This document shows, piece after piece, positions 24,184 through 43,575 of a stretch of DNA of 64,000 nt; within the stretch, counting starts at the first letter, position 1, and each line of letters starts with the position of its first letter. This DNA is from an uncultured Candidatus Binatia bacterium (lineage in GTDB: Bacteria > Desulfobacterota > Binatia > UBA9968 > JAJDTQ01). The stretch is from the NCBI GenBank assembly GCA_965204235.1, contig OZ241979.1:3109902-3173901 (forward strand), written 5' to 3'. Below the pieces are notes generated by a model, which worked only from the letters and a program-made list of their open reading frames with translations, made no database searches and was not told where the DNA came from. The position numbers and the translations under genes are program-made.

Positions 24184-25209
24184 ATGAGCGGGATGAAGTT
24201 CGGCTTGCTGGTGGATTGCCACGTCCGCGAGGGCCGGGGACAGACCCTGGCCTTCGACGAGATGTTCGGGCAGGTGGACGCGGCCGAGGCCATGGGCATG
24301 GACTCCATCTGGATCGTGGAGCACCACTTCCGGCCCAAGGCGTCGGTGCTCTCGGCCTCCATGGCCGTGGCCGGCGCCATCGCCTCCCGCACCGAGCGCG
24401 TGCGCATCGGCACCGCGGTCCAGGTGCTGCCTTTGGGGAACCCCCTTCGCATCGCGGAGGAGGCCGCCACCATCGACCACATGAGCCGCGGGCGCTTCGA
24501 CTTCGGCGTGGGCCGAAGCAGCATCCCGAAGTTCTACGACGGCTTCAACATCCCCTACTCGGAAAGCACCCCGCGTTTCGCCGAGTCCCTGGAGATCGTA
24601 CTGCGGGCCTTCACCCAGGACACTTTCTCCTTCGAGGGGGACTACTATTCGTACCACGACGTCAGCATATCGCCGCGGCCGCTGCAACGGCCTCACCCGC
24701 CCATCTACATGGCGGTGCGCACCCCCGAAGGCTTCGCCGCCACCGCCAGACGGGGCTTCTCCGTGGTGCTCTGGTTCATGGGCGACTACTACGAAGAGTG
24801 CCTGCAAGCCTATCGAGACGCATGGCGGGAGGCAGGCCACGCCCAGGCGCCCCAAATCCAGGTGCGCGTGCCCTTCTTCGTCGCGGAGTCCGAGACCCTG
24901 GCCCGGGAGACCCCGAAAGCCAGCGTGGTCCACGACCTCCACCGGGTCATCGGCGAAGCCCAGATCATGGGCGCAGCCGACCGGGTGGCCAAGGCCCGGG
25001 AGTTCCTGGACGACTACGACGAATTCCTGCGCACCCGGGTGATCTTCGGCACGCCCGAATCGGTCATCCATCGCATCGAGGAGTTCCGCGAGCGCATGGG
25101 ACTGACCGGCCTGATCCTCGACATGAACCACGGCGGCCAGATCCCCCAGGAGCACGTGCTCAACTCCATCCGCCTGCTCACCGAGAAGGTGGCGCCGCGG
25201 TTCGCCTAA
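24184..25209 (+). CDS. LLM-class flavin-dependent oxidoreductase (luciferase-like monooxygenase)
   Basis: 341 aa with the typical LLM N-terminus (…LAFDEMFGQVDAAEAMGMDSIWIVEHHF…RIGTAVQVLPLGNPLRIAEEAATIDHMS…). Confidence 0.8.
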   Translation: MSGMKFGLLVDCHVREGRGQTLAFDEMFGQVDAAEAMGMDSIWIVEHHFRPKASVLSASMAVAGAIASRTERVRIGTAVQVLPLGNPLRIAEEAATIDHMSRGRFDFGVGRSSIPKFYDGFNIPYSESTPRFAESLEIVLRAFTQDTFSFEGDYYSYHDVSISPRPLQRPHPPIYMAVRTPEGFAATARRGFSVVLWFMGDYYEECLQAYRDAWREAGHAQAPQIQVRVPFFVAESETLARETPKASVVHDLHRVIGEAQIMGAADRVAKAREFLDDYDEFLRTRVIFGTPESVIHRIEEFRERMGLTGLILDMNHGGQIPQEHVLNSIRLLTEKVAPRFA

Positions 25210-27875
25210 CCGTTCCATCCGCGGGTCAGGCTCTGCCGTTTCGCCGCGTCGTCGAGCACCCGCGCGCACGACTCCCAGTCCACGCGCCCGACCTCGTGGT
25301 ACCGGAGCTCGAACGGATGCTTGTTCGGAACGCTGTCGATGGTCTGCTTCGCTTGCTCCATCTCACCGAGGGCGACCTCGACCCAGACGTCTTCGAGCGT
25401 GTCCGGCAACTGACCGAAAAGCCGGGAGATGCTCTCCAGGCGTTCCGAGAGTAGCTGGCGCACCCGGTCCTCCACCGAGTTCGCGTAGCGCATGTTGTAC
25501 ACGTCCACCTGGGAACGGGTTTGCCCGATGCGCTGGATCCGGCCCTTGCGCTGTTCGAGGCGGGAAGGATTCCAGGGAAGGTCCAGGTTGATGAGCGTGC
25601 CGAGCCGTTGCAGGTTCAACCCTTCCGACGCCGCGTCCGTGCCGAGCAGCAGGCGTAGTTCGCCCCGGCGCACGCTGTCCTTCAGGGCGTCGCGGCCCCG
25701 GGGCTCGAAGACCCCGCGGCGCATGACCCCCGAACGGCCGGCGCCCGCGTAGATGCCGATGGTTTCAGCCGGAAGCGCCTCCGTGAGTCGATGGGCCAGC
25801 CACCACACCGAGTCGTAGTACTGGCTGAAGACGATGCAGCCGTGTTCCAGCCAGCCTTCGTCCACGAGCAGGCGCACCACCGCGGCGCACTTCGGGTCCT
25901 GGTCCAGGTTCGCCTCCATGGATTGGGCAAGCCCTGACAGCACCCGGCTTTCCTCCTTCGTCAGGGTACGAAGCGGACCGTCCTCGTCGTCATCGTACTC
26001 GTCGCCGAGGTCCTCCCAACCGTCGAGTATCCGGGTGACCGTCAGACGCCCCGCCTCCATGGTACTGCCCATGCGGCGCAGGAGCATGGTGCGAAAGAAC
26101 CCCGTGCTCGCGCGTTGGGCGAGCAACCGGCAGAACGCTTCCGCCTGGGCGTAGGCGTCCTCGAGGAAGGGCGGCAGCACGATGGCGTCCTCGTCCGACT
26201 CGCCGTGCAATCGGACCCCCACCGGGGTCAGGAACGGTTCGCCCGTCTCCGGGTCGATGGAGTTTTCGAGATACTCGCGGGTGCGCACCACGATGGTGCG
26301 GATGTAGGGGTTGTGCTGCTCCACGAAGCGGGCGAACCCGCTCTCGATCCGCTGCCGGTCGGGCGGACGCAACGACTCGACTGCGTTCCCGTGCGCATAC
26401 GCGGCCTCGTCCGGCAGGGAGAGCGAGCGGCGCAGGATCTCGAAATCCCTCCCTTCGGAGCGGGGAGGAAAGGGGTTGCGCATCCAGTCCCAGCACTCGT
26501 GGAAATCGGCCGGCGGCGATGCGTTGCCGAGCAGCAGGTCGAGGGAGGCCTTGGCGTTGCGCCAGCGGCTGCCGGGTGAGCCGAGCACCGCGTGCGAGCC
26601 TCGCGCGAGCGCATCGAGCAGGTCGTATGCCTCCACGGGATGGAGCTGGACCGGGGTGGCGGTGGCGAGCAGCAGGCTCTTGGTGCGGGGCGAGACCTCC
26701 CGGAGGAACTTCAGGAGGTTGTTGGGCTGCGCCGCCCCGAACGCCCCGCGGCCGGAGAGGTTCCGGCGCCGCGCACGGTGCGCCTCGTCCAGGATCACGC
26801 ACTCGAAGCGCATCTCCGCCAGCCGCGCCGCGGCCTCGGCGTTGCCGGTAACCAGGCCGGTGGAGACGATACCCACCCGCCGCGGGCAGCGCCGGATCGA
26901 TTCGGCGCCTGCCCCCGGATGCTCGACCCCGCGCTCGTCCACCCAACCGCGGCCGGTCCAGACCGCTGACGGCAGTCCGAGCAGGGTGTCGAGTTCGTCC
27001 TGCCACTGCCGGAGCAGGGGCTTGGGAGCCAGGACGAGCACCGGCCCATCGCCGACCAGGGCCATGAGTTGCGCCGCCATGGCCAACTGGAGAGTCTTCC
27101 CGAGCCCCACCTGATCGGCCAGCACGAAGCGCGCGCCGTGCGGCCCGCGATGCGCGTCGAAGGCGAGCTTGACGAAATGCTTCTGGTGCTCCCACAGCCC
27201 CACCTCCTTGCGATAGACCGGCGCTTCCACCATGACGGACGCGGGGTCCGGCTCTTCCCGCCAGCGGGCGACGTCTCCCACCAACTCGCGGCGCGACAAG
27301 CGGTCGAGGTCCCGAACGACGAAGTCCGCAAGCCGGACCGCGAAAGGCGACGACCATAGGGCGTCGAACTCCTCCTGGACCCATGCCACGGCTTCCGGTG
27401 AATCGTCCTCCCAGACGATCTCGTAGTTGAGCCGGAACGCCGCCCCGGACTCGTTGGCGCTGCCAAGGAAGGAGGTCGGTCGGTCGTCCGCCAGGATGAT
27501 CACGCCCGCCTTGCCGTGGATGAGGCCGAAGACGTCATCGGGCAGTACGCGGACCTCGACCTTCCCGGAACGCAGGAAGTCGTACAGGCGCTCGAAGCGC
27601 GGCTTGGCGGTGTCACCGAGGTCCTCGGGGCGGGAGTCGCACCACTCCCGGCGCATGGCGGCCTGGGCGGCCCTCGCCACTTCCACGTCGGCGCGCGACA
27701 GCCCGGAATTGCACACCACCCGGACCTTGCCTTCGACGCTCTCCAGCGCCTCGCCCGCCACTTCGAGGATCGAGGACGAGAAATAGCCGGCGATTCGGTC
27801 GTAGCTCTTGGCGCCGGCAAGCCGCGGGGTCAGGAAGGCGGTGTCGAGCGGCTGTTGGCGAGAGGAGTATCGCAT
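25206..27875 (-). CDS. PLD-family nuclease domain fused to a SNF2-family (SF2) helicase; last gene of the defence island
   Basis: 889 aa. N-terminal HKD motif (…LIHGKAGVIILADD…SFLGSANESGAAF…). Then helicase motifs (…LADQVGLGKTLQLAMAA…, …VILDEAHRARRRN…, C-terminal …LLLGTDAASEGLNLQ…, …QRKGRIQRIGQ…). 39-nt gap to the upstream gene. Confidence 0.85.
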   Translation of the reverse strand: MRYSSRQQPLDTAFLTPRLAGAKSYDRIAGYFSSSILEVAGEALESVEGKVRVVCNSGLSRADVEVARAAQAAMRREWCDSRPEDLGDTAKPRFERLYDFLRSGKVEVRVLPDDVFGLIHGKAGVIILADDRPTSFLGSANESGAAFRLNYEIVWEDDSPEAVAWVQEEFDALWSSPFAVRLADFVVRDLDRLSRRELVGDVARWREEPDPASVMVEAPVYRKEVGLWEHQKHFVKLAFDAHRGPHGARFVLADQVGLGKTLQLAMAAQLMALVGDGPVLVLAPKPLLRQWQDELDTLLGLPSAVWTGRGWVDERGVEHPGAGAESIRRCPRRVGIVSTGLVTGNAEAAARLAEMRFECVILDEAHRARRRNLSGRGAFGAAQPNNLLKFLREVSPRTKSLLLATATPVQLHPVEAYDLLDALARGSHAVLGSPGSRWRNAKASLDLLLGNASPPADFHECWDWMRNPFPPRSEGRDFEILRRSLSLPDEAAYAHGNAVESLRPPDRQRIESGFARFVEQHNPYIRTIVVRTREYLENSIDPETGEPFLTPVGVRLHGESDEDAIVLPPFLEDAYAQAEAFCRLLAQRASTGFFRTMLLRRMGSTMEAGRLTVTRILDGWEDLGDEYDDDEDGPLRTLTKEESRVLSGLAQSMEANLDQDPKCAAVVRLLVDEGWLEHGCIVFSQYYDSVWWLAHRLTEALPAETIGIYAGAGRSGVMRRGVFEPRGRDALKDSVRRGELRLLLGTDAASEGLNLQRLGTLINLDLPWNPSRLEQRKGRIQRIGQTRSQVDVYNMRYANSVEDRVRQLLSERLESISRLFGQLPDTLEDVWVEVALGEMEQAKQTIDSVPNKHPFELRYHEVGRVDWESCARVLDDAAKRQSLTRGWNG

Positions 27876-27914: not shown

Positions 27915-28421
27915 TCAGGCGCGGGGCTCGCTCGCAGGAAGGCGTTTTACGTGCGCGTGACTGGCAATGCGCTTCCGATGACAAGCCACCTGGTTTTCCA
28001 ACTCCCGGAAAGCGGTCAATCCACGCAGAAGGCCAAAGTCGCCAATCTGCTCAGCCACAAGCTGTACACACTTGCCCAAATCCCGATGGAAACGTTTCAA
28101 CCGTCGTCCTCGAAGGCCGCTAGCCTGCCTGAGCAAGCCGTGGAGGACCGTCTTGGGATCCGGCAGATTTTCGAGCTCCCTCACCTCCGGCATGGATAGA
28201 CTCTGGCGGCTCGCCGGATTTCCCGCGGCTTTCTTCAGGGCGGATTCGTCGATGAGCAACCACGCTTCCTGCATTCGTACCGGAACCACGCAGACGACCG
28301 GCAGGGTCTTTCCCCTCTCGCTCCGTTCCAAAGCCTTGCGGATTTCTTCCTGCCGTTTCTCCACTGATTCGCCCTCCGCGTCCCGATGCACGAAGAGCAG
28401 GTCGCAAGGGTACAGTTCCAT
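27915..28421 (-). CDS. DUF4276-like protein, partner of the upstream AAA ATPase; possibly N-terminally truncated
   Basis: 168 aa, …TLPVVCVVPVRMQEAWLLIDESALKKAAGNP… resembles the conserved core of DUF4276. Its frame stays open upstream (…IPIQREFSDLRRLRNPPRDLFQRIDKS-M…) with no start codon there, so the N-terminus may be lost. Confidence 0.5.
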   Translation of the reverse strand: MELYPCDLLFVHRDAEGESVEKRQEEIRKALERSERGKTLPVVCVVPVRMQEAWLLIDESALKKAAGNPASRQSLSMPEVRELENLPDPKTVLHGLLRQASGLRGRRLKRFHRDLGKCVQLVAEQIGDFGLLRGLTAFRELENQVACHRKRIASHAHVKRLPASEPRA

Positions 28422-28610: not shown

Positions 28611-30100
28611 TCACGAGCCAAGAGGAAGCAGCAGTTGCTGCAGGTCGTCCCGGTCAACCACTCGCCTCTCCCTTGCTCGTTTCTCTTGCGGACTCATCGG
28701 AAGCACCGGATTCAGATAGGCCAGCAGATCGCCTTTGGCTACAAGGTCGGATTCGCTGCTTCCCTCGGCTCTCCAAGTGTCCGGCAGATAGTGGAACCGG
28801 GCTTCCTTGAAGAATTGTTTCCGACTATCCACGAATTCCATAAGCTTCACGAACACGACGCTGTCTTCCGGAACCTGCAGCAAAACCGCCGCGAGTGTGT
28901 GTTGACGATCACTTGGCGCAGCGGATTGTCCGGTTCTGCCGGTTCGGACGCATCCACGGCAATATCGCGCAGCAATTGCAGGATGGCCGGAATCCGCGCC
29001 GGATGGATGCCGTTTTCCGGTTCTTCCAGACAGAGTACACCCTGGACTTCCGTATCCATCTCCAGCACGGCCAAAGCCAGGAAGCGCAAGGTGCCGTCCG
29101 ACAATGCCCGGGCCGGATGCAGGGTTCCTTCTCCATCCTTGACGTACAGGGTCAGGATTTCCCGTTTCTCATCCCGATCGATGTTGACGTCGTGCACGTC
29201 GTCGATGAGTTCGTGCAGTCGATTGGCGATACGGCCACAGGTCCGCGCTGCGTTTTCCTCCTCCAGTGGACCGTTGTCTTCCCGTCCCGAGTGGTGAGCC
29301 AAGCGGTACAGCGTGGCGGCCAGATGGCTGCCATCCGTCCCCATGCGCGTGGGAGAGGCGAATTCATCCGGCCGCCTGAGCGCCGACGGCTCCAGTTGCA
29401 GCATCCGCCACGCTTCCATTTCCCGGCGAGCGGCCACCACGGTGGGACTCTCCGCCGCGTTGGCCGCGGAAAGGACCGTGCGGGGCAGATTGGCCGCCGG
29501 CCTGCGCAACGGACGACCGCTGCTGCCGCCGTCCTGATGCAAGTTGATGACCCGGATTTCGCCTTCTTCTTCGGTCGAGATGAAATAGGGGGCACGGCGC
29601 TGGCCGCACACCACCGACTTCCGCCAGTCCTTCGCATTGTGAGGAAACGGAAGGTGCTTCCAGGCATCGCGTTGGGCGATGTGGACCAGTTGCTCCTTCA
29701 TGATTTCCAAGGCGCCCGGAGTCAAGCTGTCGCCGGTCTCCTTGTAGGCAAGCTCCAGCGAATAGCGCAGGAACGTAATGCTGGCCTTGGCTTCCTGTCC
29801 CAGATCGTCCACGGCTTTCCCCGGTACGATCATCTCCGCGTCGAAGGACATGCTCTCCCTATAGCGGTCACCGGCACGGTGGAAGAGGTTACGCACGTCC
29901 GCAGTACGGCTGTCCTGGTCGCGCACCGAGGCAGCGGCTTCCATCAACGTGTGACCGGCCAGCGCACTCAGAAAGCGGATCGCGTCGAACAGGTTCGACT
30001 TGCCGGCGCCGTTGGGCCCGATCACGCACGTGAACGGACCAAAGCGCACATCCACGTCCACGAGGTTCTTGAAGCCGGAGACTTGCAGTCGCGTCAGCAT
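28611..30100 (-). pseudogene. AAA_15/AAA_21-type (SMC/ABC-like, OLD-family-like) ATPase, disrupted by a frameshift after the H-loop
   Basis: ORF 28847..30100 carries Walker A GPNGAGKSN, the ABC signature LSDGTLRFLALAVL, Walker B/D-loop VLCLEEPENGIHP and H-loop VIVNTHS. It then runs into …RRFCCRFRKTASCS*. The natural continuation (…LQVPEDSVVFVKLMEFVDSRKQ…) is in the +1 frame (ORF 28611..28883). The shift falls at a GTTTTG T-run near 28872–28885. Confidence 0.6.
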
Positions 30101-30284: not shown

Positions 30285-33200
30285 TCAGACATGGTCGTTC
30301 TCCACGGCGCCAGCGACGAGGCGGGCGGCCGCGGCGTCTTCGCGCCAGTGGTTGACTTCGATGGCGGCGAGGTAGCGGAGGATGGCGACCAGCGCCTCGC
30401 GTTGCGGCCAGTAGCCGGACAATTCGGTTCGGAGCCACGTGAGGCTGTCGGCCACCTCGCCGCTCTCCGCCACGCGCCAGACGGCATAGAGGGCGTGGCG
30501 GACGAGGCTGCGCCCGAACGCGGTGTCGCCCAGGTCGCTGCGCTTGAACTCGGAGGCGGTCTTCAGGCGGGTCCGGTTCGCCTTGCCGGTGTGGAGCAGG
30601 TAGCGGTAGTCGCGGACGCCGAAGCCGCGGGCGAACTCCTGATAGACCCCGGAGCGGAAGTCGCCGTGGCGTTCGACGTCAAGGCCCTTGACGTAGAGCT
30701 TTTCCTCGGGGGTGAGCCGACGCCACAGGTAATCCGGCAAGCCTGTGGGGACCAGGAAGTTGCTCGCGGTGCGCACGGCGTCTCCGATGATCTTCTCGAT
30801 GGGGTTGGGTTCGCCGCGGCGCCGTTCCCGCGACAGTTCATGGGATACGTCGATGTCCTCGATCGAACCGTACTGCGTCAGCACCCGGAGCGCCGCGGCG
30901 TAGGCGGCTAGCTGGTAGTCCGCATCGGAGAAGTTCGGGGCCTCGCGGTCGTCGAGTTCCAGCATGGACGCAAGCTGGCGCTCCACTTCGACTCCCACTT
31001 CCTGGGCTACTTCGTCCTGGAACGCCGTCTCCTCGACGGTCTGCCTGCGCAGCACCATCAGCACGGTGCCCTGGACGTAGTTGCCTTCCTTGACACCGAA
31101 CGGCGTCTCCGTCGCAATGGTCCACGCCGCGGTCACACGCAAGCCCGCGGCCCAGAGGATGAGGGTAAGATCGGCCCAGATCGATACGTCCTGGTGGGTG
31201 AACATGACGACCTGGAAGCCGCCGTCCGGCATGTGGGCCGCGAGGTTCCGGTAGCAGTCCACCATGCTGCGCCGGAAGTTCGCGTCCGCACCCCGAACGG
31301 CGAGGGCGCGCTTGCTGTCCGTGTGCCAGTCCCGGAACAACACCGGCAGCCTTTTCTCGTACCAGGCGAGAAAGAATTCGGACAGTTCGTGGTAGTTGAT
31401 TGCATCCGCGTAGGGCGGATCCGTGATCCAGATGTCTGCACGCCTGTCGATGGCGCGTGCATCCGTCGTCTGCAAAGTGTACGGCGCATGAACCGAAGCA
31501 TCGCTTTGGGTGAGAAACCATGAGCTGACGAGCGTGTGAATGCCTCGGCCGCCGAAGGTCATGAGCGTGTTCAATGCTTGATTGCTGAAAGTCTGAATTA
31601 CCTTTTCTCCCGCCTTGTCCGCCCACCACCGGGAGAGCCTGCTGTTCCAATCGGCGGTGCGCCCGAGTCCGAGCAGGCACGCGGCGCCGGACACCGCAGA
31701 GATCGAAGACGTCTCCGATTTCTCGGCCAGTGCTCCGTGGACCAAGAGTTGTCTCGGTGTGAACAAATGATGCCAGTGCGTCCAGCCGCGCTCTCGCATC
31801 AGTCGCGTAGTCTCATCTCCGGGTGTAATCGCCCGATTCGGAATGTAGCCGAGAGCCTGCCATTCCGGGAAGCGTTCTCGAAGCAGCGCGAGTGCCCGTG
31901 CTTCCCGTTCCATGTCGGCGTCTTCGACGGGTTGGTACAGCGTTTCCGGCAGCAACTTCGCAAGCGCCTCGACACGATCGTTTCTCCGAGCTGCCACCTC
32001 CTTCGATTTCCTGAGTCGTTGCGCTGCCGCTATCAACTCGCGCTGCGGGCAATCTGCGCTCTTTTTGGCCTCGAACTCGCGCTGCGCATCTTCGACCGCA
32101 CGGTCTTCGGCCAGCCAGTCGCGCTCGCGCAGATCCTCGACTTCACGTCGCTCGTGAGCTTCGAGCCGTTCGACCAGGGCCGCAATCGCATATTCAAGCT
32201 CAACCCACTCCGGCACCGCTGGCGGCGAAGCATCGGGGGTCTGCGTGCCCTTCGGGGGCGCGGGCCTCCCGCCCGCACCATCCTCAAGCCGGCAGGCCGC
32301 CCGCACCCGCTGCTCCGCCCACAGCAGCGCGGCCAGAGAGGGCAGGCGCCAACGCACGCAGTACAGCCGCTCCTGGAACACGTCGTCCGTCCGGGGTACG
32401 AGGTCGTCGTTCTCCCATTGCCGCAGCCCGCGGCCCCGTCCGCCCTCCCCGCGCCGGTCGCCGCGGATGGCGGTCATCGGGGTGGAGGCATGACAATCGG
32501 GATTCGGACATTCCAGCCGCGACTGCTTCACCGTGCCGGCGCCGCGGGCGGCGGCGAGCGCTTCCCGACCCACACCCGAACGGACGTCGATGGCGAAGCG
32601 CCTTTCCGCCGGTTCAGGCTTCAGCCGCGCCACGGCCCGCGTCTTCTCGCCGATGACCCAGCTTGGCGCGAGCGGCACGCGCCAGCCGCATTCGGGGCAG
32701 GCCGTCTCCGTGCAGTAGAGGAAGGCGTCGGCCCGCCAACCGGCATCGTCGTGCTCAATGCGCCACTCCGTCACTTGGCGGTCCACCGCCTCGAACACTT
32801 CGGTTTGCGCCAGCCGCACGCGCTCGGCGACTTCCTCCCCGCCGCCGACGATGTTCAGCGCGCCCCAGGTGAGCAGGGCGGCCACCGGGTTCAGATCGGA
32901 CCCGTAGGCTTCGCAGCCGAGCCGGGCCGCCTCGAACGGCACGCTGCCGCCCCCGCAAAAGGCATCCCCCACGCGCGGCACGCGCCCGAAGCGGCGCTCG
33001 CCCAGCTCCCGCATCAGTTCGGGCAGGCTGACCGCCTCCGTGCCCAGATGCCGGTTGATGACCTTCCAGGCGTCCGCGGACGGTCCTTCCAGATGCTCGG
33101 GCCTGTCGCACCATTTGAGCTTTTCGTCATAGCCCATGCGGTCGAAGACGATGCGTTGCAGGCGCGCTCGGTCCGCGGCCTTCGTGCCCTTCCGGAGTCT

Positions 33201-33566
33201 GGGCCGGTCAGGTTCGGCGTCGAACGCAAACCACTCGGTCCGTTCCTCCGGCGAGAGCCGCGAATACACTTCCTTGAGCGGAATGTTGCCGCTCTTGCGC
33301 CGCCGCAGCCCCTCCTCGTCCATCGTCAGGAGCGCGAGGAACACCTCCCGGTCCTTCCGCGGATCGTTCGAGGCGGGCATCAGCAGCCCGAGAATGATCG
33401 CCCGCACCATCACGAGCGGCTTCCTGCCCCACCACTTGCCGAGACCGGTCAGGGTCTGGCTGTAGTTCGCCTTGCGCTCCTTATAGCTCTCCTTCGACAG
33501 CCGCGAGACGGGAAATTGCGTCTCGATGAAGGTCAGGGCGTCGGTGAAGGAATGGGGGCGCGTCAT
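30285..33566 (-). CDS. DUF1156-type N6-adenine DNA methyltransferase with Zn-ribbons (COG1743-like)
   Basis: The ATG at 33566 overlaps the upstream stop (ATGA). The ORF-track start at 33905 is spurious. N-terminus TFIETQFPVSRLSKESYKE (DUF1156-like). Zn-ribbons CTETACPECGW and LECPNPDCHAS. Amino-MTase motif IV WITDPPYADAINY. Confidence 0.8.
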   Translation of the reverse strand: MTRPHSFTDALTFIETQFPVSRLSKESYKERKANYSQTLTGLGKWWGRKPLVMVRAIILGLLMPASNDPRKDREVFLALLTMDEEGLRRRKSGNIPLKEVYSRLSPEERTEWFAFDAEPDRPRLRKGTKAADRARLQRIVFDRMGYDEKLKWCDRPEHLEGPSADAWKVINRHLGTEAVSLPELMRELGERRFGRVPRVGDAFCGGGSVPFEAARLGCEAYGSDLNPVAALLTWGALNIVGGGEEVAERVRLAQTEVFEAVDRQVTEWRIEHDDAGWRADAFLYCTETACPECGWRVPLAPSWVIGEKTRAVARLKPEPAERRFAIDVRSGVGREALAAARGAGTVKQSRLECPNPDCHASTPMTAIRGDRRGEGGRGRGLRQWENDDLVPRTDDVFQERLYCVRWRLPSLAALLWAEQRVRAACRLEDGAGGRPAPPKGTQTPDASPPAVPEWVELEYAIAALVERLEAHERREVEDLRERDWLAEDRAVEDAQREFEAKKSADCPQRELIAAAQRLRKSKEVAARRNDRVEALAKLLPETLYQPVEDADMEREARALALLRERFPEWQALGYIPNRAITPGDETTRLMRERGWTHWHHLFTPRQLLVHGALAEKSETSSISAVSGAACLLGLGRTADWNSRLSRWWADKAGEKVIQTFSNQALNTLMTFGGRGIHTLVSSWFLTQSDASVHAPYTLQTTDARAIDRRADIWITDPPYADAINYHELSEFFLAWYEKRLPVLFRDWHTDSKRALAVRGADANFRRSMVDCYRNLAAHMPDGGFQVVMFTHQDVSIWADLTLILWAAGLRVTAAWTIATETPFGVKEGNYVQGTVLMVLRRQTVEETAFQDEVAQEVGVEVERQLASMLELDDREAPNFSDADYQLAAYAAALRVLTQYGSIEDIDVSHELSRERRRGEPNPIEKIIGDAVRTASNFLVPTGLPDYLWRRLTPEEKLYVKGLDVERHGDFRSGVYQEFARGFGVRDYRYLLHTGKANRTRLKTASEFKRSDLGDTAFGRSLVRHALYAVWRVAESGEVADSLTWLRTELSGYWPQREALVAILRYLAAIEVNHWREDAAAARLVAGAVENDHV

Positions 33567-34210
33567 GGGTTTGCCTGCACGAACGGCAAGAGGGAGTGAC
33601 GAATCTCCATCCACCGACCATCTCGTACATGCCCTGTGACGAAGCGCTGAACGACGCCGATGGGCGAATCCACCTGAAGCTCTCCTTGCAACCCAAGGCC
33701 AAGCCGCTTCGTCATCATCGCCGCCTCGATGTGCGAGAAGGCGAAATTCATGTCGCCATCCATGACGTAGCCCATCATGCAGCCAACCGGCAGACCTTCG
33801 GCGTACTTCTCCGTGACGAAGCGCATCATGCCGTCTTCGCCGACGTAGGCGCCCGCTTGCGAACGCTTCGCGCCGTCCGTGCCCGTCACGTTGAGCCGTT
33901 TGCATTCATAGGCGAGATAGGTATTTCGGTCGTTATCGACGATCACGGCGAGATCGACACGTGACGCTCCGGTGAGCGTGCCGCGGGGAGAACGTGTGAA
34001 GGGGTGGAACTGGTACTCGAAGTAGAATTCGTCTCTTGCCTCGGCGTCTCTGGAGAGACGGGCGACCAACGCCACCGTGATCGTGTCTTCGCATGAAGAA
34101 GGCGGCAGATGGGCAATCGCCTGCTGCCAGACCCGTGCGACGCAGTGCAGGAACTTCCAATCGGTGACGCGGAACTTCACCACCCAGCTCCGCCCCTCGC
34201 CGGACACCAT
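33563..34210 (-). CDS. small protein with a PD-(D/E)xK-like motif (putative nuclease), translationally coupled between the two methyltransferases
   Basis: 215 aa. …RVDLAVIVDNDRNTYLAYECKRL… fits the D…(D/E)xK arrangement of the restriction-endonuclease fold. Overlaps both neighbours by 4 nt. Confidence 0.4.
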   Translation of the reverse strand: MVSGEGRSWVVKFRVTDWKFLHCVARVWQQAIAHLPPSSCEDTITVALVARLSRDAEARDEFYFEYQFHPFTRSPRGTLTGASRVDLAVIVDNDRNTYLAYECKRLNVTGTDGAKRSQAGAYVGEDGMMRFVTEKYAEGLPVGCMMGYVMDGDMNFAFSHIEAAMMTKRLGLGLQGELQVDSPIGVVQRFVTGHVRDGRWMEIRHSLLPFVQANP

Positions 34211-34212
34211 CG

Positions 34213-36399
34213 CTAGCGGATCCCCCGTCGGAATTCCTCGATGTCAACCACCACTTGCTCCGCGTCATCCCGCGCCGCGGTGCGCATCCAGAAGCGCAGG
34301 CTGTTCGGTTTGACCATGTACATGTCGTCGCCCGCATACATCCGCAGGTTGGAAACCTGGTGGATGTTTCCAGGAAGCTCGGTGTTCGACTCCCGCGCGA
34401 CCTCCACCAGCAGCCTGCCGACTTCGTTCGATTCTTCCCTGTATTCAACCCGATCCTGCATTGCGCAAAGGCGGAGTCGCAGAACGGCCAGGTCATGGTT
34501 TTTGGCGACAAGGGTTACGCTGACCCGGCTATCCGCCTCCGTCCAATCGTCCAGGGAGGACGTGAGAACCTGCGCGTACTCTCGCCGCTGCTCGTCCGAA
34601 GGTGGTTTCCAGATCCGCGGAAATGCCGATGGTCCGGGTTGAAGGGCAGGAACGATATACTCCCACGTCTCATCGACGACGAGCATCTCCCGTTCCGTCA
34701 GGACGAAGTAATCACAGGCAAGTCGATCTATCTCGTTCAACATTTGGTCCAACAGGTCCGGCGGTTGCATGGGGTTGTCCAACTTCCTGGATGCACCGTC
34801 GATCAGGGAAATCAACCCTCTGGCGGCGTCGTACGACCTTTGCGGTTCGGGCGTTTCTTCCGGCGCGGGGAACGGCAAGTCGAGCAATTGAGCCGGATGA
34901 ACTTCCGGTCGCTCGGCGACTATTGACGACGTGCTGTGAAATGCGTACCAGAACAACAGTTTACTGTTCAGGAGGGCAGCGAGGAGCTTGGCGCGTTCTC
35001 GGCCGGCATCAGGGACAGTTATTGCCTGGATAGCGGCCTGAAATGTGAAGGGCGTCTCCGAGTAGGCGGCTCTCAGCCTTCGGTTTCCGGTGGTTTTGGA
35101 AATCAATACCCGCGGCCCACCAAATCCCTTCTCGAAACCGCGCCGATGGACCGCTTCGTCGTGGCGAGGAGTGAGGCTTTCCAAGTCGGGGGCGAAAATG
35201 CGGAATGATTTCGTCGGCAGAAACGGGTTCGTCGCCACGATTTCGCTCCTGGTCCACTTGTAGCTCGCATCCTTCAAGCGGTCTTCCAGCACGGGCTTGA
35301 ACCCCTGACCGGTCTTCCACGTCGGTTCGGGGTCTTTGCCTTGCTCAGCGTTCGCTCCCCCATGTTGCGCTATCTTGGCGCGCAGCCGAGGATAAGTGGA
35401 AAGGTATCGGAACAGCTTGTTTTCCGGGCTGGTCATCCACATACGCTTGTTGAACTCGAGCGGATCCTTTTCGACCATCACCGTGTTCAGCCGCTTCTTG
35501 TCGGTTTCGTTGATGCTCACGAGGCGCGTGGCGCCGGAATTCGGGCTTGCCTTGGGCGTCCAGTAGTCGAACTCGTAGGGCCTGGCGTCCGTATTGAGGC
35601 CGGCGATGAAGAGGGACGCAGGTCGCACGGCAACACTGAAAAGCTGGAAACGAAGATCCGCGTAGTTGACGATGCGGCGTACCCGAGCGCTCCGGAAAAG
35701 CAGGCTTCTTGCTTCCAGGGCCTTCTTCGAGTGGTTGTGGAGGAAGCTCATTGCAGGAAGCAGGAATGCGATCCTGCCGTCCTTCTTCAGGTGCCGGAGC
35801 GCCTTCCAGAGAAACCCCCATGCGGCTTGCTTGTCTGGCGCCGGGAGACCGTGCCGTTCGCACCAGCCGGCTGAGCCCGCGTCGCTCCTTCGCCACGGCG
35901 GATTGCCGATCACCACGTCGTATTCGGGGCTTGCTTCCATGTGGAAGAAATCCGCCTGGCGCAGGGTCTCGCCCCATAGTGGGGGCAGCAGCTTGCCGCG
36001 TCTCATCAGGCTGCGGATATCGGGAGGGCGCGCCTCTTCCAGGAGTGCGACATAGAGGGAAAACGCCGCCACGCGCACCGCGCTGGCGTCGATGTCCCAG
36101 CCGCATAGCCGGGCGAGGAAACCGCGCAGGCTGTCCCAACGGATGTTCTGCTTCGCTTGGCGATATCGCCACTGCTCGCAGAGACGCTTGAACAGGCACA
36201 CCAGGAAAATACCCGAACCGCATGCCGGATCGAGGAACTTTCCCTTCGTCTTGATGCGCGGGTCGAGAACCTCCCGGTCGTCCCATATCTGGGAGACGAT
36301 GCTGCTCGCCAGATGCATCGGGGTGTGGAACTGGCCCTTCTTGCGCGCTTGGTCCTGCTCGTTCAGGAACTTGTCGTACACGGCGCTGATCAGTTCCAC
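34213..36399 (-). CDS. Eco57I/PglX-like (gamma-class) N6-adenine DNA methyltransferase domain protein; annotated GTG start, true N-terminus probably upstream (see 36390..37292)
   Basis: Motif X-like GQFHTPMHLA. Motif I FLDPACGSGIFL. Motif IV VIGNPPW. Long C-terminal TRD-like region. Its frame is open for more than 40 codons upstream of the annotated GTG start. Confidence 0.75.
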   Translation of the reverse strand: MELISAVYDKFLNEQDQARKKGQFHTPMHLASSIVSQIWDDREVLDPRIKTKGKFLDPACGSGIFLVCLFKRLCEQWRYRQAKQNIRWDSLRGFLARLCGWDIDASAVRVAAFSLYVALLEEARPPDIRSLMRRGKLLPPLWGETLRQADFFHMEASPEYDVVIGNPPWRRSDAGSAGWCERHGLPAPDKQAAWGFLWKALRHLKKDGRIAFLLPAMSFLHNHSKKALEARSLLFRSARVRRIVNYADLRFQLFSVAVRPASLFIAGLNTDARPYEFDYWTPKASPNSGATRLVSINETDKKRLNTVMVEKDPLEFNKRMWMTSPENKLFRYLSTYPRLRAKIAQHGGANAEQGKDPEPTWKTGQGFKPVLEDRLKDASYKWTRSEIVATNPFLPTKSFRIFAPDLESLTPRHDEAVHRRGFEKGFGGPRVLISKTTGNRRLRAAYSETPFTFQAAIQAITVPDAGRERAKLLAALLNSKLLFWYAFHSTSSIVAERPEVHPAQLLDLPFPAPEETPEPQRSYDAARGLISLIDGASRKLDNPMQPPDLLDQMLNEIDRLACDYFVLTEREMLVVDETWEYIVPALQPGPSAFPRIWKPPSDEQRREYAQVLTSSLDDWTEADSRVSVTLVAKNHDLAVLRLRLCAMQDRVEYREESNEVGRLLVEVARESNTELPGNIHQVSNLRMYAGDDMYMVKPNSLRFWMRTAARDDAEQVVVDIEEFRRGIR

Positions 36400-37292
36400 C
36401 GGGATGAACTCGAAGTTGTAGCCCCAAAAACGGAACTGGCTCCTGCCGGATCCATTTCCTCCTTGCCGGAGTGGAAGCGAGCCAGCACCTCCAAGTGGCG
36501 CCGTTGAAGCCCGGGGCCAACGTCGTCAAAGGAACATGGCTTCACGAACAGGTCACCGTTGAAATCGCGGCTGAGGCTGCGGAACAGGCCGTAGAAGGCG
36601 TTGACCTTGTTTTCGTTCAAGATTTCGGCGAACGTGGAAAAGGCGCCGTCAGTGGCGGCCTCGATATATCCTGCATCGATGATCTTCCGATCTTCCAGAT
36701 ACGCGATGAACATCGTCTGCATCAAAAGGGCCTGGGATGCCGCCGGGGCCAAGCCGTAATCCCGAAGCAGGTCGTGCGATTGCTTGAGATTGCCCAGGAG
36801 CACTCCATCCACGCGCTGGTTCGCGTCGAACTTGCCTCCGTGCTCCTTCCAGTACCGGCCGGACTCCATGCCGTAGATCAGGTTTCGCAGTGCGAGCGCA
36901 TCGCTTACCTGGTGGAGCACGTCGATCAGGCAGGTCTTGTCGAAAGTCTCCGTGCTCCTGTCGGCCGGGGTGGCAGCGAGCGAGTAGATTCGGATCGTTT
37001 CGCCGCACACGACGGCGAGAACGCTTGCAAGTCCCTGGTTCCAAAGATCCGAATGAAGGCGTGCGATGGCTGTCGGGTCCATGCTCTCGGTTGCGAAGAA
37101 TACCGCGGTCGGAAGGTGCTGGACGCAGAACACGGCGGCCGCGCCCAAGTCGCGCAAGGCCGTTCGTATCGGCCTCGCGTGTGGGACGTCGTCAACCTCG
37201 GTAGCGTCCTGGTAGAGCTCGGGGGCATGGCGGGCGTCCAGACCCAGGCACTCCTTCCAGTCCGGCGCGAGCTGGTTTTGCAGAGCCAACAT
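36390..37292 (-). CDS. hypothetical protein, probably the displaced N-terminal domain of the downstream methyltransferase (separated by a -1 frameshift)
   Basis: Start MLALQNQ at 37292, 8 nt after the DUF3780-like stop. It ends 10 nt inside the MTase ORF. Both frames are open across 36392–36522, and the protein-like character swaps frame around 36420–36470 (…ARFHSGKEEMD… → …FWGYNFEFIPVELISAVYDKF…). Confidence 0.4.
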   Translation of the reverse strand: MLALQNQLAPDWKECLGLDARHAPELYQDATEVDDVPHARPIRTALRDLGAAAVFCVQHLPTAVFFATESMDPTAIARLHSDLWNQGLASVLAVVCGETIRIYSLAATPADRSTETFDKTCLIDVLHQVSDALALRNLIYGMESGRYWKEHGGKFDANQRVDGVLLGNLKQSHDLLRDYGLAPAASQALLMQTMFIAYLEDRKIIDAGYIEAATDGAFSTFAEILNENKVNAFYGLFRSLSRDFNGDLFVKPCSFDDVGPGLQRRHLEVLARFHSGKEEMDPAGASSVFGATTSSSSRWN

Positions 37293-37302
37293 CCCAGGCA
37301 AC

Positions 37303-38055
37303 TCAGGGGCCGCGGCGGCCTGCGGCGATGATCCCGGGTGGCGCGGCGCCGTCTTCTTCGCCTCGTTCACCGGACCGACGATGCGCGCCGGCAACCGCCC
37401 TGCGCGTCGGCGCGGCGTCCTCCCGGCTCCGGATCCCACTCCCACTCCGGCCCTGGCGCGGGGGTTCCGAACGCTCCTCCGCGGCCGCCAGCCGGAAGAT
37501 GTCGCTCTGCCGATCCTGGCGGTCGCCGGTCACCGGGTTCTCTGTGAGCGCGAAACGCACCGCCTTGCGCCAGCCCTTGTTCCTGCCGTGCAGGGCGTGG
37601 CCGGTGGCGGCGTTGGTCATGGTGAACAGCCACCACCGTTCTTCCGGCGCGAGTCCCAACCAGTTCTTGAGCGCCGCGGGGATGAGCGCCGGGTCGGCGT
37701 CTTCCACGGCCCAGGCGAGGAGCGTCAGTTCCTTGCCCAGCAGGCGGGCGACCGGGATGTCGCCCCGCTTCCAGCGTCCCGGCGGCAGGCCCTGCTTCTT
37801 GAGACGGCGGTTGAACTCGACGCGCACCTCGTCGGCAATGGCGTCCCACTTGGCGCGCGGCAGCGCGGCCCGAAGCCTGGAATCATGAGGGCCGAGACCG
37901 AGGGAGGGAGGCGCGTAGCCCGTCTCGGGATCGAAGCGCAGGTGCTCGGCCACGAGCACGTCCCCACGGACCCTCGAAGGCACGGTCACCACGAAGTGGT
38001 GTTCCGACTCCTCGAACTGAAAACCGAACCCTGCCGGCCTGGAACGGGTCCCCAC
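37303..38055 (-). CDS. small protein in the DUF3780 position of the DUF499/DUF1156 cassette
   Basis: GTG at 38055, 2 nt after the DUF499 stop (the ORF-track start at 38259 overlaps DUF499). About 250 aa (…GFGFQFEESEHHFVVTVPSRVRGDVLVAEHLRFDPETGY…). Assignment is by context, not by recognised motifs. Confidence 0.4.
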   Translation of the reverse strand: MGTRSRPAGFGFQFEESEHHFVVTVPSRVRGDVLVAEHLRFDPETGYAPPSLGLGPHDSRLRAALPRAKWDAIADEVRVEFNRRLKKQGLPPGRWKRGDIPVARLLGKELTLLAWAVEDADPALIPAALKNWLGLAPEERWWLFTMTNAATGHALHGRNKGWRKAVRFALTENPVTGDRQDRQSDIFRLAAAEERSEPPRQGRSGSGIRSREDAAPTRRAVAGAHRRSGERGEEDGAAPPGIIAAGRRGP

Positions 38056-38057
38056 GC

Positions 38058-41000
38058 TCAAGGCTCCACGTCGTTGCGGTCGTATTCCGCCCGGATCTCC
38101 GCCACGTAGTCCAGGAAGCGCTGGCCCGTGTCGTAGCGCACGCGCTTCGCCTCGATGGAGACTTCGCCGTCGGGCACGAGCCCCCTGAGTTGCTCGACCG
38201 TCTGCTCGATCCGGTCGCCGCCCAACTCCACGTCGTCGGAAAGGGAAATCTCGCCCCAAGTCCCGCCGGCCTGAGCCGCGAAGCGCAGTCCGCCCGCGGA
38301 GGCTTCATGCTTCTTCAGCCGGTTGATGAAGCCGTAGGCGTTGCGAGTGGTCTGGAACCGGAACCCGCCGGAGGCAGGACGCCACACCGCGGGACGGGCC
38401 TTGTCGATGGGCTTGGTCTCCCGTCTGTCGGCCATATCGCGCCGGTGGACCTCGGAAGCGACTCCGTCCTTCTCCGCCACCGCGAGCACGAGGCGGGCGC
38501 CCACCGGCGCCGCGAACGGCCCTTCGTACGCGCCGCCGTTGACCTTCGGGTCGGATCCGTCGGTGGTGTAGCGGATGGGCGCGGCCGGGGCGGAGCGGAT
38601 CTCGACCATGCGTCGGTCTCCGTCCGGGTACTCGCGCGATTTCAGCGTGATACGGTTCGACCACTCCACCGGCTCCCCGGTATCGTGCTCGCCCTTGGAA
38701 TCGACCGCGAGGAAGGAGACGCGAAGCTCCGCGGTCTCGAAGTCCGCCCCCTCGACCGCCATCGATGCCGGCGTCGCCGCTCCGCCGAACTCTGCATGGA
38801 TCCGGTCGGCGTTGACGGGAGCAAGCCGCAGCTTCACCTCTCCGGTGTCGTCGTCCCGGGACAACTCCCGGATGCGCACGCTCGTCGCCGGCTTCGGAAA
38901 GGGTCCCCTGTTGACGTAGCTCCCTTCCTCACGCCACAGGTCCTTGTGCAGGCAGTCCTGCTTCATCCGGTCGAGGGCGTCGGGCCGGTGCCACTGCCAA
39001 CGGGGGTTGGACGCGGCTCGGCGCACGACCTCCGTCCACAACATGGACTTCTGGGTGAACAGCCGGTCTTCCACCTTCTTGCGGAAGGTCTCGCTCGCGA
39101 CGTCCGTGGCGTACTTCTGCCGATCCGCGAGCGCCTCCCTCACCTGCTCCTCGCCGTTGTAGCGGTTCTCCTTGAACTCCATGAGGAAGTCCACCCTGGC
39201 CAGCCGGTCCCGGGTGGGGTAGTGCAGCGTGGTGAAGGTCTCGCGGACGGCGCTGTGGAACTGGGCAAGGAAACGCGGCAGGAGCTGGTCGCGCGCCTGC
39301 TGCATCTGCGGGTCGCCGTCGGCCACCCCTTCTTCGTGCATCTCACCGATGATCTGGTTGATCGCCTTCAACTCCCGCGCGCGTTCCAGCAACGATTCGA
39401 AGGCCCGCTGTCCGGTCAGGAAGCAGATGCGGTTCTGGTAGGTGAGCTGCTCGTACAGGACGGCGAGGTCCGGGTGCAGGCCCGCCGGGTGCGGCTCGGT
39501 CACCACCAGCGTCACCCGGTCGGGGTGGACGTCGATCTCGTCCACGGCCGGGAGCGGTTGCAGGCGCTGGTAACACGACCCCTCGACCGGCTCGAAGATC
39601 TCCGTCAGCCGTTCCTTGAGTTCTTTCGTGGCTTGGTCGCGGAGGTAGGCGCCCGCGGTAGTGGTCACCCGGGCGATGAGGTTCTGCACGTTGCGCAGGT
39701 GCAGACGCCCGTCGTTGGTCGTGTGCAGGTACCAGGCCGCGGTCACGAGGCGCGCGATCACCTCGTTCTGCAACTTCGAGAGGTCGCGCCCCGGAGAGCA
39801 CAGGTTGGCGACGACCTCGGGGATGGCGAGCCCCTTGACGGCGTTCGGGACGTTCGCCAGCGAGGCGACCAGGAGCAGCCGCATGACGTCCCTGGCGTCC
39901 TCGCCGCATCCCAGGTTCGCGTCGATGGTCTCGGCCACGGCGTTGCCGCCCGACGCGATGTCGTGGGCGATGGCGTTCTCGAGCGTCGGGTTGATCTGGT
40001 TGATCTCGGTGAGGGTCTCGCGGCTCTCCAGATCGACGTCGTGGGCGGCGACGAGGTAGGGGTCATGGCCGGTATCCCAGATCCGCGACACGACGATCCG
40101 CATCAGGCGGATCAGCCCGCGGGTCTGCTGGAAGCCCTGGTTCTCCCGAAAGCGGCCATAGAGGTCGCGGATGGCGGGATGGAACGGGTACGACTCGGCC
40201 ACCTGGGCGGCGAACTGCTCGGGCGAGGCGTTCGTCACGTCCATCTGCTTCGCTTCGCGCACCGCCTTCGCGTAGCCCTGCGCCACCTCCTCGATCTCCG
40301 CCTCGTCCGGGAGGGCCTCGAAGAGACGTTTGCGGAGGATGTGGTAGAACTCGTCCGTGTTCATGCGGACGGGCTCCAGGTTCATGGCGGTGCGGCCGGT
40401 CTCGGCTTCCAGGTCTTCCAGCGCTGCGACGATCTGCGCGGCCCCCGCGCTGTACGTCGCCTTGAGGTCGGAGATCACCAGGCAGACGTTGCGCAGTTCG
40501 TCCCGCCCGACCGCCACCAGGAGGTTCGACAGCGCGGTGGTGGTGACTGCCGACAAATCCGAGTTGCCGATGCTCTTCGAGGCCGCGTTGACGAAGTAGG
40601 GCGGCAGCTCGTCCAGCATGATGACCAGCGGCTCGCCCTCGAGCAGGTTCACCCAGGCGGTCTGACCCGGCGCGGCCAGGGGCGCGTAGTAGTCGTTGAA
40701 CTGCTCCTTCCTGCCGAGCTGCTCCGCGATGGCGCCCCAGATGCCGAGGGGCGCATCGCTCTCGCGCCCGGAAAAGGCGACCACGCGGACCGGGGCGAGT
40801 TCGGGGTCCGGGGTGTAGAAGCCGCCCATGACCTCGGCCCGGTAACCGGGATGCCCGGCCAGGAGCCCAAGCGCGAGGAGGTTGTGGGTCTTGCCGCCCC
40901 CCATGGCCTGGGTCAGCTTGAAGACGCCTTGCGCCGATTTCCCTTCCAGACGCCGGAACCCCTCGGTGAGCAGGGTCCTCATACCCTCCGTGACGTGGTT

Positions 41001-41126
41001 CTCGGCAAAGAATCCAGCCGGGTCGATGCGGCCGTCGACCAGGTCCGTCAGGTCGAGCACGGTGTCGCGGCGCGTGGGGTCGAAGGCGCTTGGCCGGGGT
41101 CTGCAGGCCTGTTTTACGGTCCGCAC
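38058..41126 (-). CDS. DUF499-type P-loop ATPase (large, about 1020 aa)
   Basis: GTG start at 41126. P-loop LTQAMGGGKTHNLLALGL near the N-terminus. Walker B-like VIMLDELPPYF. Long α/β C-terminal region. First gene of the minus-strand island. Confidence 0.7.
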   Translation of the reverse strand: MRTVKQACRPRPSAFDPTRRDTVLDLTDLVDGRIDPAGFFAENHVTEGMRTLLTEGFRRLEGKSAQGVFKLTQAMGGGKTHNLLALGLLAGHPGYRAEVMGGFYTPDPELAPVRVVAFSGRESDAPLGIWGAIAEQLGRKEQFNDYYAPLAAPGQTAWVNLLEGEPLVIMLDELPPYFVNAASKSIGNSDLSAVTTTALSNLLVAVGRDELRNVCLVISDLKATYSAGAAQIVAALEDLEAETGRTAMNLEPVRMNTDEFYHILRKRLFEALPDEAEIEEVAQGYAKAVREAKQMDVTNASPEQFAAQVAESYPFHPAIRDLYGRFRENQGFQQTRGLIRLMRIVVSRIWDTGHDPYLVAAHDVDLESRETLTEINQINPTLENAIAHDIASGGNAVAETIDANLGCGEDARDVMRLLLVASLANVPNAVKGLAIPEVVANLCSPGRDLSKLQNEVIARLVTAAWYLHTTNDGRLHLRNVQNLIARVTTTAGAYLRDQATKELKERLTEIFEPVEGSCYQRLQPLPAVDEIDVHPDRVTLVVTEPHPAGLHPDLAVLYEQLTYQNRICFLTGQRAFESLLERARELKAINQIIGEMHEEGVADGDPQMQQARDQLLPRFLAQFHSAVRETFTTLHYPTRDRLARVDFLMEFKENRYNGEEQVREALADRQKYATDVASETFRKKVEDRLFTQKSMLWTEVVRRAASNPRWQWHRPDALDRMKQDCLHKDLWREEGSYVNRGPFPKPATSVRIRELSRDDDTGEVKLRLAPVNADRIHAEFGGAATPASMAVEGADFETAELRVSFLAVDSKGEHDTGEPVEWSNRITLKSREYPDGDRRMVEIRSAPAAPIRYTTDGSDPKVNGGAYEGPFAAPVGARLVLAVAEKDGVASEVHRRDMADRRETKPIDKARPAVWRPASGGFRFQTTRNAYGFINRLKKHEASAGGLRFAAQAGGTWGEISLSDDVELGGDRIEQTVEQLRGLVPDGEVSIEAKRVRYDTGQRFLDYVAEIRAEYDRNDVEP

Positions 41127-42109: not shown

Positions 42110-42149
42110 CCTCGCCTCCCGGAAATCAGCCTTGGCCGTTGCCCGTTCC

Positions 42150-43565: not shown

Positions 43566-43575
43566 GAACGTTCCC

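Follow-up and report, generated by a model that had tools for sequence, protein, structure and literature searches.

An ordinary one-base frameshift divides a type IIG-like methyltransferase gene embedded in an Hma/Type-2 BREX-related defence locus

We analyzed a 64,000-nt stretch of the chromosome of an uncultured Candidatus Binatia bacterium (contig OZ241979.1; hereafter the window, whose positions serve as coordinates throughout), in which a DNA methyltransferase is encoded on the minus strand, like its neighbors, by two overlapping open reading frames (ORFs) with products of 300 and 728 aa. We found that the two ORFs form one gene of ~1,026 codons, which encodes a gamma-class N6-adenine DNA methyltransferase of MmeI/Eco57I type (type IIG-like) that carries a probable specificity domain, and that they are separated by the loss of a single G. 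The lesion is an ordinary, non-programmed one-base frameshift, and a nearby T5G4 tract (GTTTTTGGGG) is a bystander. On balance we lean slightly towards a genuine, very recent mutation that disables the methyltransferase gene. Together with a small downstream gene, p215, the broken gene is a cassette embedded between the DUF3780 and DUF1156 genes of an Hma/Type-2 bacteriophage exclusion (BREX)-related system. Below, related loci are denoted by L numbers and homologous proteins by P numbers.

Profile and homology searches placed the two products on one chain. In the PADLOC type IIG profile PDLC03623 (1,022 positions), the 300-aa half matches positions 48-239 and the 728-aa half positions 285-1011, in colinear order, and residues 48-1016 of an intact homologue, P0002, align to positions 48-1011 of the same profile (E 1.3e-68). 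A fused 1,026-aa query retrieved 1,889 proteins, the best 120 of which are almost all single chains of 1,004-1,111 aa (coverage 97-100%, identity 47-90%). One additional member of the cluster, P0121, is intact and 94% identical. The sole exact match of the 728-aa product lies in the window's own genome (a 4,008,427-bp contig), and the 300-aa product matches no Pfam family. No homologue from a reliable assembly is split. An earlier note on this DNA had suspected that the 300-aa ORF is the missing N-terminal region of the enzyme, and alignment of both halves to the profile and to full-length homologues upholds this; the alternative, that homologues always carry the 300-aa protein as a gene of its own, did not hold, as all informative homologues are fused. 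We considered whether three truncated homologues (P0024, P0025 and P0026) reflect recurrent inactivation, since P0026 begins at the same junction. We rejected this idea because their long-read contigs, named as 3x, 18x and 3x coverage, carry many other fragmented genes, DUF1156 included; these homologues therefore say nothing about biology. A scan of species-representative genomes yielded four Gammaproteobacteria metagenome-assembled genomes with best segments 77-84% identical, and neither allele was matched when JGI metagenome contigs were scanned for the exact pattern GGCAGGA[N]GCCAGTTCCGTTTTTGGGGCTA. Look-ups of the 728-aa and 300-aa products for independent assemblies gave no record of either.

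The reading frames at the split site are as follows. The upstream ORF (36390..37445, minus strand) ends in ...SSVFGATTSSSSRWN (in a longer stretch, ...ARFHSGKEEMDPAGASSVFGATTSSSSRWN), with its TGA at 36392-36390, and the methyltransferase ORF (34213..36399, minus strand; 728 aa) starts with a GTG at 36399. The ORFs share 10 nt, GTGGAACTGA, in which stop and start codon overlap. From 36525 to 36400 the methyltransferase frame runs open through 42 codons, none of them ATG, GTG or TTG, and the coding strand at the tract reads TCC GTT TTT GGG GCT. The 10-nt overlap, the more than 40 start-less codons and this coding-strand reading are each present as first described, and the fused product, predicted at about 1030 aa, comes to 1,026 aa. 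Judged by homology to relatives, the upstream ORF really begins at ATG 37292 (MLALQNQ...), not at GTG 37445; this ATG sits 10 nt past the DUF3780 stop codon and opens the 300-aa product.

We located the lesion by protein and DNA alignment. Homologous proteins read ...RFHSGKEEM(D/G)PAG-(G/S)Q(F/L)R(F/L)WGYNFEFIPVELISAVYD... across the junction; the window tracks them as far as PAG in its upstream frame and, from SQFRFWGYNF onwards, in its methyltransferase frame, and the bases 36390..36440, read in this second frame, encode the native residues SQFRFWGYNFEFIPVEL. At the DNA level one G is lost between 36441 and 36440, so that GCAGGAGGCCAG of relatives becomes GCAGGA-GCCAG in the window (in wider context, CCGGCAGGAGGCCAG in relatives and CCGGCAGGA-GCCAG in the window). 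The codons GGA GGC CAG (Gly-Gly-Gln) thereby become GGA GCC AG..., and the lost base is part of a GG dinucleotide. Where the window has GGA-GCCAG, nine relatives have GGAGGCCAG, or GGAAGCCAG in L004, and all nine carry the gene as one unbroken ORF. This position falls inside the 36420–36470 range in which the earlier note had seen the frames swap. The note had further placed the change of frame at the T5G4 tract itself, which proved incorrect: the G is missing upstream of the tract, which lies 10 nt downstream of the lesion (36431-36422). Because the tract is unchanged in the intact L001 and L002 (its T5 also in L008), and because L003-L007 have CTCCGCCTCTGGGG in its place through substitutions that leave no T run, we conclude that it is neither the lesion nor a conserved element.

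The predicted consequences are as follows. Translation from ATG 37292 would yield 284 native residues and 16 junk residues before the stop at 36390, leaving the methyltransferase-specificity part (motifs X, I and IV) out of frame after the lesion. Only reinitiation at GTG 36399, a start codon that overlaps the stop and would be used inefficiently, could produce this part, and the resulting product would lack 14 conserved linker residues, including the invariant Q286, Y292, F294 and P298. We infer loss of function of the methyltransferase gene; the loss of one base would in this way silence an embedded restriction-like cassette.

We next considered what the protein is. Pfam searches of the 728-aa product matched N6_Mtase (59 bits; cut-off 20.4), Eco57I (49 bits; cut-off 25.3) and MmeI_Mtase, and the specificity domain TaqI_C weakly (19.6 bits, under the cut-off of 26.5). 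The C-terminal part carries motifs X (GQFHTP), I (DPACGSG) and IV (NPPW), followed by a probable specificity domain of TaqI-like type and then a C-terminal domain. In the N-terminal part, an α/β domain that lacks conserved catalytic residues is accompanied by a helical region with YLEDR and FNGDLF motifs. An AlphaFold2 (AF2) model of the intact P0002, built with 111 aligned homologues, has a mean predicted local distance difference test score (pLDDT) of 87.8 and a predicted template modeling score (pTM) of 0.87; the pLDDT dips at residues 281-290, the inter-domain linker where the break falls. In Foldseek searches of the PDB, the best E-values were for CamA and M.BseCI (~620 aligned columns, E about 1e-17 to 1e-18), stand-alone gamma-class enzymes that are each described as an adenine methyltransferase on cognate DNA, and near-full-length alignments were obtained to BrxX/PglX, MmeI, BpuSI and DrdV. 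A search of PDB sequences with the repaired protein returned methyltransferase cores only. No D, E or K in residues 1-130 is invariant or nearly so across the 111 homologues, and the N-terminal domain modeled on its own (pLDDT 82.7) matched no PDB structure significantly (best BpuSI, E 0.28, then DrdV). Hence, the in-cis nuclease that defines type IIG is not detectable in this protein.

The enzyme had initially been labeled 'PglX/Eco57I-like'. The Eco57I part of this label stands on the Pfam matches, and the PglX part does not. The best NCBIfam BREX PglX model, BREX_2_MTaseX, scored 42.9 bits against a cut-off of 400 and the others 16-29 bits against 500-900, that is, 16-43 bits where 400-900 are required, and the scanned genes included no PglZ. 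The protein belongs to the IIG/IIL/PglX family by fold class and is itself no PglX.

The surrounding genes identify the host locus. The minus-strand order is DUF499, DUF3780, the broken gene, p215, DUF1156, a 55-aa ORF, HEC-01A, HEC-01B and PLD-SNF2 helicase (Table 1). All four core genes (DUF499, standalone DUF3780, DUF1156 and HKD(PLD)-SNF2 helicase) were found via Pfam, PADLOC and NCBIfam, and no PglZ was present among the scanned locus genes or among genes called at related loci. These four core genes make up the 'Type-2 BREX-related system', equated with the earlier 'Hma system' (PMC12839542), and Hma operons are hotspots for embedded defence cassettes, HEC-01 included (bioRxiv 10.1101/2024.01.29.577857; PMC11232893). 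The order DUF499, DUF3780, this gene, p215, DUF1156 is common to L002, L007 and L008; on the longer contigs, L007 and L008, HEC-01 and the PLD-SNF2 helicase come next, as in the window. The island occupies the same chromosomal site in the metagenome scaffolds L001, L002, L007 and L008, with 96-99% identity in the flanks (in all four, one flank carries Amdase, Amidohydro_2 and MmgE_PrpD; in L007 and L008, the opposite flank carries Bac_luciferase). We note that the DUF1156 gene differs from its relatives at about 31860-32280, where an in-frame, repeat-rich 315-nt segment of L007/L008 (at about 32258) is missing from the window. The stretch 31,760-32,276 is only about 81-84% identical to relatives (85.5% at the protein level), and the signal of G+C content at third codon positions (GC3) shifts phase there with the ORF remaining open; it looks like a variable or repeat-containing linker.

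Immediately downstream, p215 begins 2 nt past the methyltransferase stop codon. Homologues of p215 lie directly downstream of the methyltransferase homologue in L002, L007, L008, L009 and L010, including proteins of 186 aa in L009 (54% identity) and 234 aa in L010 (48% identity); the p215-type genes of these last two loci are at L009:13139-13699, L009:20254-20706 and L010:13231-13935. The family comprises 526 homologues of about 200-235 aa, none with a Pfam assignment or an informative name, and p215 has no match in Pfam, NCBIfam, PADLOC or PDB sequences. Matching longest-contig sizes imply that at least 22 family members are on the same contigs as a methyltransferase homologue. Three residues, D86, E102 and K104 (D86...E102-C-K104), are invariant in 121 sequences and form a PD-(D/E)XK-like signature. 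By this motif p215 is probably a nuclease acting in trans, with the large protein supplying methylation and target recognition.

The IIG-like methyltransferase and p215 apparently constitute a conserved, unnamed two-gene cassette that recurs in Hma/Type-2 BREX-related loci. Term searches of the texts of PMC12839542, PMC11232893 and bioRxiv 10.1101/2024.01.29.577857 did not find this pair, and the cassette may deserve description as an embedded restriction-like module. Two related loci have a different composition. In L009 (ENA ERZ25068400 ctg22273_148x_c), positions 6421-23081 hold a DUF499-DUF3780-...-PLD-SNF2 helicase locus with no DUF1156 methyltransferase and two IIG-like methyltransferases (1,026 and 982 aa, 26% identical) with transposases between them. 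One of these genes is directly trailed by a p215-like gene and the other by a distant p215-like paralogue; an IIG-like enzyme may here stand in place of the system's own methyltransferase. In L001 (10001-14103), the methyltransferase ORF specifies 1,097 aa with a FitA-like RHH antitoxin domain fused in frame at its C-terminus, a PIN-domain gene follows, p215 is absent, and the DUF1156 gene is called in two pieces of 735 and 415 aa.

Two of the four explanations originally offered for the split, a sequencing indel and a genuine pseudogene, stay live, and we weighed them against each other. The broken gene shows no decay: the repaired protein keeps 127/127 invariant and 198/201 near-invariant family residues, doing better than the median of the family (6 deviations). 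Therefore, the deletion is either very recent or not real. A candidate sign of decay, an in-frame AAG at 36342-36344 (minus strand) that adds a Lys just ahead of motif X (QARKKGQFHTP) and is absent in most homologues, was rejected as a polymorphism, since it is shared with the intact L008/P0123. We aligned window positions 24531-41294 with L007 and L008, which derive from the same chromosomal site and are about 96% identical in nucleotides. Exactly two window-specific 1-nt indels were found, ~7.5 kb apart (about 23 kb compared overall). The second is a C missing at about 28890/28891 (TCGCCGGC to TCG-CGGC) in the HEC-01A-like ATPase gene, which encodes 496 aa in L007 and L008 and is split in the window, so that residues 1-403 are read in one frame and 405-496 in another. 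Relative to L007 the pieces show 100% identity in protein and 99.5% in DNA, with 8 synonymous differences. Each of the two lesions hits the large gene of an embedded cassette, and all four core genes are unbroken.

The rest of the window argues for a real mutation, because the assembly looks clean. Its CRISPR array has 49/50 perfect repeats, each with a C4 and a G4 run, so that 98 such runs are intact. About 27 other genes, seven cas genes among them, were scanned against Pfam; 22 had matches, and none of the genes gave a sign of truncation. We relied on Pfam domain completeness here since a GC3 frame plot for counting frameshifts was too noisy at 66% GC. One suspected third frameshift, in a 3HCDH pair at 2-1208, proved to be two separate genes, the upstream ORF ending with a complete C-terminal domain. 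In the flank at 41300-47435, comparison with L001, L007 and L008 revealed intergenic indels only and no window-specific coding indel, and about 18 kb of other compared sequence held no window-specific frameshift. The large genes of the embedded cassettes make up 4.6 kb of about 23 kb, and with uniform errors both lesions would fall there with p about 0.04; the clustering is put at p about 0.02-0.04. Several points weigh against our preferred account. The p value is weak, and its categories were chosen post hoc; both lesions are one-base deletions in G/C dinucleotides of otherwise flawless genes, as assembly errors are, and related low-coverage long-read metagenome contigs are full of such breaks. 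In addition, with the break situated in an inter-domain linker, each of the two fragments might fold and work by itself, and p215 is assigned its putative nuclease role from its motif.

The strongest competitor is an error in the consensus, which we regard as a real but lesser possibility. In that case the organism would carry an unbroken gene (GGAGGCCAG), and the losses of the G and of the C (~28891) would be confined to the deposited sequence. The dinucleotide context of both deletions and the preservation of both genes, with all invariant residues kept in one and 100% amino acid identity in the other, fit such errors. The source is moreover a single 4.0-Mb contig of whole-chromosome size, and 3x-coverage contigs riddled with broken genes occur among the relatives known from this kind of data. 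Against this, neither deletion is in a homopolymer of three or more bases, the usual context of long-read errors, and the CRISPR repeats, the other genes and the approximately 18 kb compared elsewhere are free of comparable breaks. A genuine and very recent loss keeps a slight preference.

If the deletion is real, its effect could be read in two further ways. We consider it improbable that both deletions are genuine and were selected, turning off the embedded cassettes (IIG-like methyltransferase/p215 and HEC-01) and keeping the four core genes. An active fragment would still be possible under this reading: reinitiation at GTGGAACTGA, or a rare -1 slip on U5, could supply an active methyltransferase-specificity fragment. 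Quite improbable, too, is a functional split, in which both fragments are made, the second by termination-reinitiation at GTGGAACTGA, and the 728-aa protein methylates and is restriction-negative. The possibility of a residual methylating fragment arises because the break lies within the linker, at the pLDDT dip, and because the 728-aa part, with all methyltransferase motifs and the probable specificity domain, resembles complete stand-alone methyltransferases such as its best PDB matches, CamA and M.BseCI; the overlapping stop and start codons also suit reinitiation. However, direct reading of the sequence ahead of GTG 36399 found no Shine-Dalgarno-like purine run, the product would lack the linker residues named above, and the split has no counterpart among homologues from reliable assemblies. 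If such a fragment were active, it would create a methylating, non-restricting state uncoupled from the putative nuclease p215.

Programmed -1 frameshifting on the U5 run, or phase variation through the length of the T5/G4 tract, is the least probable reading, and we set it aside. Phase variation via long homopolymer tracts is known for some pglX and mod genes. Geometrically, a slip of the P-site tRNA-Phe from UUU to the overlapping UUU is possible, and a -1 event anywhere between 36525 and 36393 would suffice to regain the frame. The earlier note had taken this slip on T5 as the junction, and homology contradicts it, because the junction is ...EEMDPAG | (G/S)QFRFWGYNF, upstream of T5. A slip on T5 would restore the frame and yield ...PAGASSVFWGYNF, replacing the conserved GQFRF by ASSVF and losing the family-invariant Q286. 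Direct reading of the junction found no X XXY YYZ heptamer in the zero frame, and the 95 nt downstream of T5 fold at -21.6 kcal/mol, less stably than shuffled sequence (mean -26.2; z = +1.36). A phase-variation switch, also proposed at first, fits no better. The lost base lies outside the tract, in a GG dinucleotide and not in a simple-sequence repeat; Tandem Repeats Finder detected no repeat within about 240 nt of the lesion; T5 and G4 are below typical contingency-tract length; and relatives show no change of tract length, the T5G4 being identical in L001 and L002 and differing by substitutions only in the others. The tract is the same in intact relatives, where slipping would do harm, and the split is kept in no relative. 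Because repeat, heptamer, stable structure and conservation of the split are all lacking, programmed frameshifting and repeat-based phase variation are unsupported. For annotation, we recommend joining the two coding sequences and marking them as a single frameshifted gene (or correcting them, if in error), and treating the neighboring ATPase gene likewise.

Table 1. Features of the broken gene and of its host locus, with window coordinates
Feature	Coordinates	Strand	Evidence
N-terminal 284 codons, native frame	36441..37292	-	tblastn of intact L007 protein (residues 1-284 to 37292-36441, frame -3), homologue alignment, AF2 models
1-nt deletion site	36440..36441	-	DNA alignments with L001, L002, L007, L008 and with nine relatives
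Out-of-frame tail of upstream ORF: 16 junk codons ASSVFGATTSSSSRWN, then TGA	36390..36440	-	Three-frame translation, homologue alignment
GTTTTTGGGG tract (T5G4), coding Arg-Phe-Trp-Gly (cGT TTT TGG GGc)	36422..36431	-	DNA alignment
C-terminal 742 codons, methyltransferase frame	34213..36440	-	Pfam matches; tblastn residues 281-1025 to 36453-34216
p215, 215 aa, putative nuclease, intact	33563..34210	-	99.5% identical to L007 copy
DUF499 AAA+ ATPase with Fn3-like domains (HmaC-like/BrxC-like)	38058..41126	-	Pfam DUF499, Fn3_assoc; PADLOC DUF499 1-1021 of 1,022 positions
DUF3780	37303..38055	-	Pfam PF12635; NCBIfam DUF3780_antiphage E 5.6e-49, 166.5 bits, under 200-bit cut-off; tblastn
DUF1156 N6-methyltransferase (HmaB-like), frame intact	30285..33566	-	PADLOC DUF1156_MTase E 8.6e-283; tblastn
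HEC-01A-like ABC ATPase, second embedded cassette, broken	28611..30100	-	PADLOC; alignment, tblastn vs L007
HEC-01B-like ATPase partner	27915..28421	-	PADLOC HEC-01B E 1.7e-25
PLD (HKD)-SNF2 helicase, host-system effector	25206..27875	-	NCBIfam phospholipD_antiphage 1,229 bits vs 1,100 cut-off; PADLOC PLD_Helicase

The window holds further defence genes. A type I-D CRISPR-Cas locus spans 8563-11728 (plus strand) and 12153-20979 (minus strand), with cas1, cas4, a Cas3-like helicase, csc2, cas10d (PADLOC Cas10_Id, E 1e-263) and cas6; its array comprises 50 copies of a 28-nt repeat (CTCCTAACCCCTCATGGGGAACGGTCAC), of which 49 are perfect, separated by spacers of about 36 nt, and the G+C content of the region is lower (56-63% vs about 68-70%). 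A further putative defence cluster lies at about 53769-58876 (plus strand), where adjacent BrxD-like ATPase genes (54494-55453 and 55469-56740) each match a different part of the BrxD profile and are followed by a ZorD/DpdE-like SNF2 helicase (56777-58876). The window contains no rRNA or other Rfam match.

Among the known systems close to the protein are type IIG/IIL enzymes (MmeI, BpuSI, Eco57I, DrdV), with which it shares a size of ~1,000 aa and an architecture of N-terminal α/β domain, helical spacer, gamma N6-adenine methyltransferase and, probably, TaqI-like specificity domain, as well as the end-to-end match to PDLC03623, the Pfam matches to Eco57I/MmeI_Mtase and the full-length Foldseek matches to MmeI, BpuSI and DrdV. 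Unlike these enzymes, it has no N-terminal catalytic D/E/K, a small D...ExK protein is encoded immediately downstream, and the pair is embedded in a DUF499/DUF3780/DUF1156 system instead of standing alone. BREX PglX/BrxX is likewise a large N6-adenine methyltransferase whose N-terminal region is non-catalytic; Foldseek alignments to BrxX of Salmonella and E. coli span 957-1,068 columns (TM-score 0.40-0.44, query-normalised), and the locus is BREX-related, DUF499 being a BrxC-like ATPase (PMC12839542). In contrast to BREX, the locus genes scanned include no PglZ, BrxA, BrxB or BrxL, the BrxX-like methyltransferase of the system here is the DUF1156 protein, and no tract length has changed. The locus resembles the embedded cassettes of other Hma/Type-2 BREX-related systems in that its core genes are interrupted by extra defence genes, HEC-01A/B included. 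It differs in its IIG-like methyltransferase/p215 pair, which the term searches of the three papers did not find; L009 holds two such pairs and no DUF1156 methyltransferase.

At the level of the lesion, two comparisons apply. Programmed -1 sites (dnaX, IS3-family transposases) also show two overlapping ORFs in a -1 relation with a U-rich run nearby; they differ from the present case, which has no slippery heptamer at the homology junction, no stimulatory structure and no conservation of the split. Ordinary frameshift-inactivated restriction-modification and defence genes match it in every essential: a one-base deletion gives two overlapping ORFs that are annotated separately, and close relatives are intact. 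A frameshifted defence gene of this sort is routine, and the sole oddity here is the second, similar lesion in the neighboring embedded cassette.

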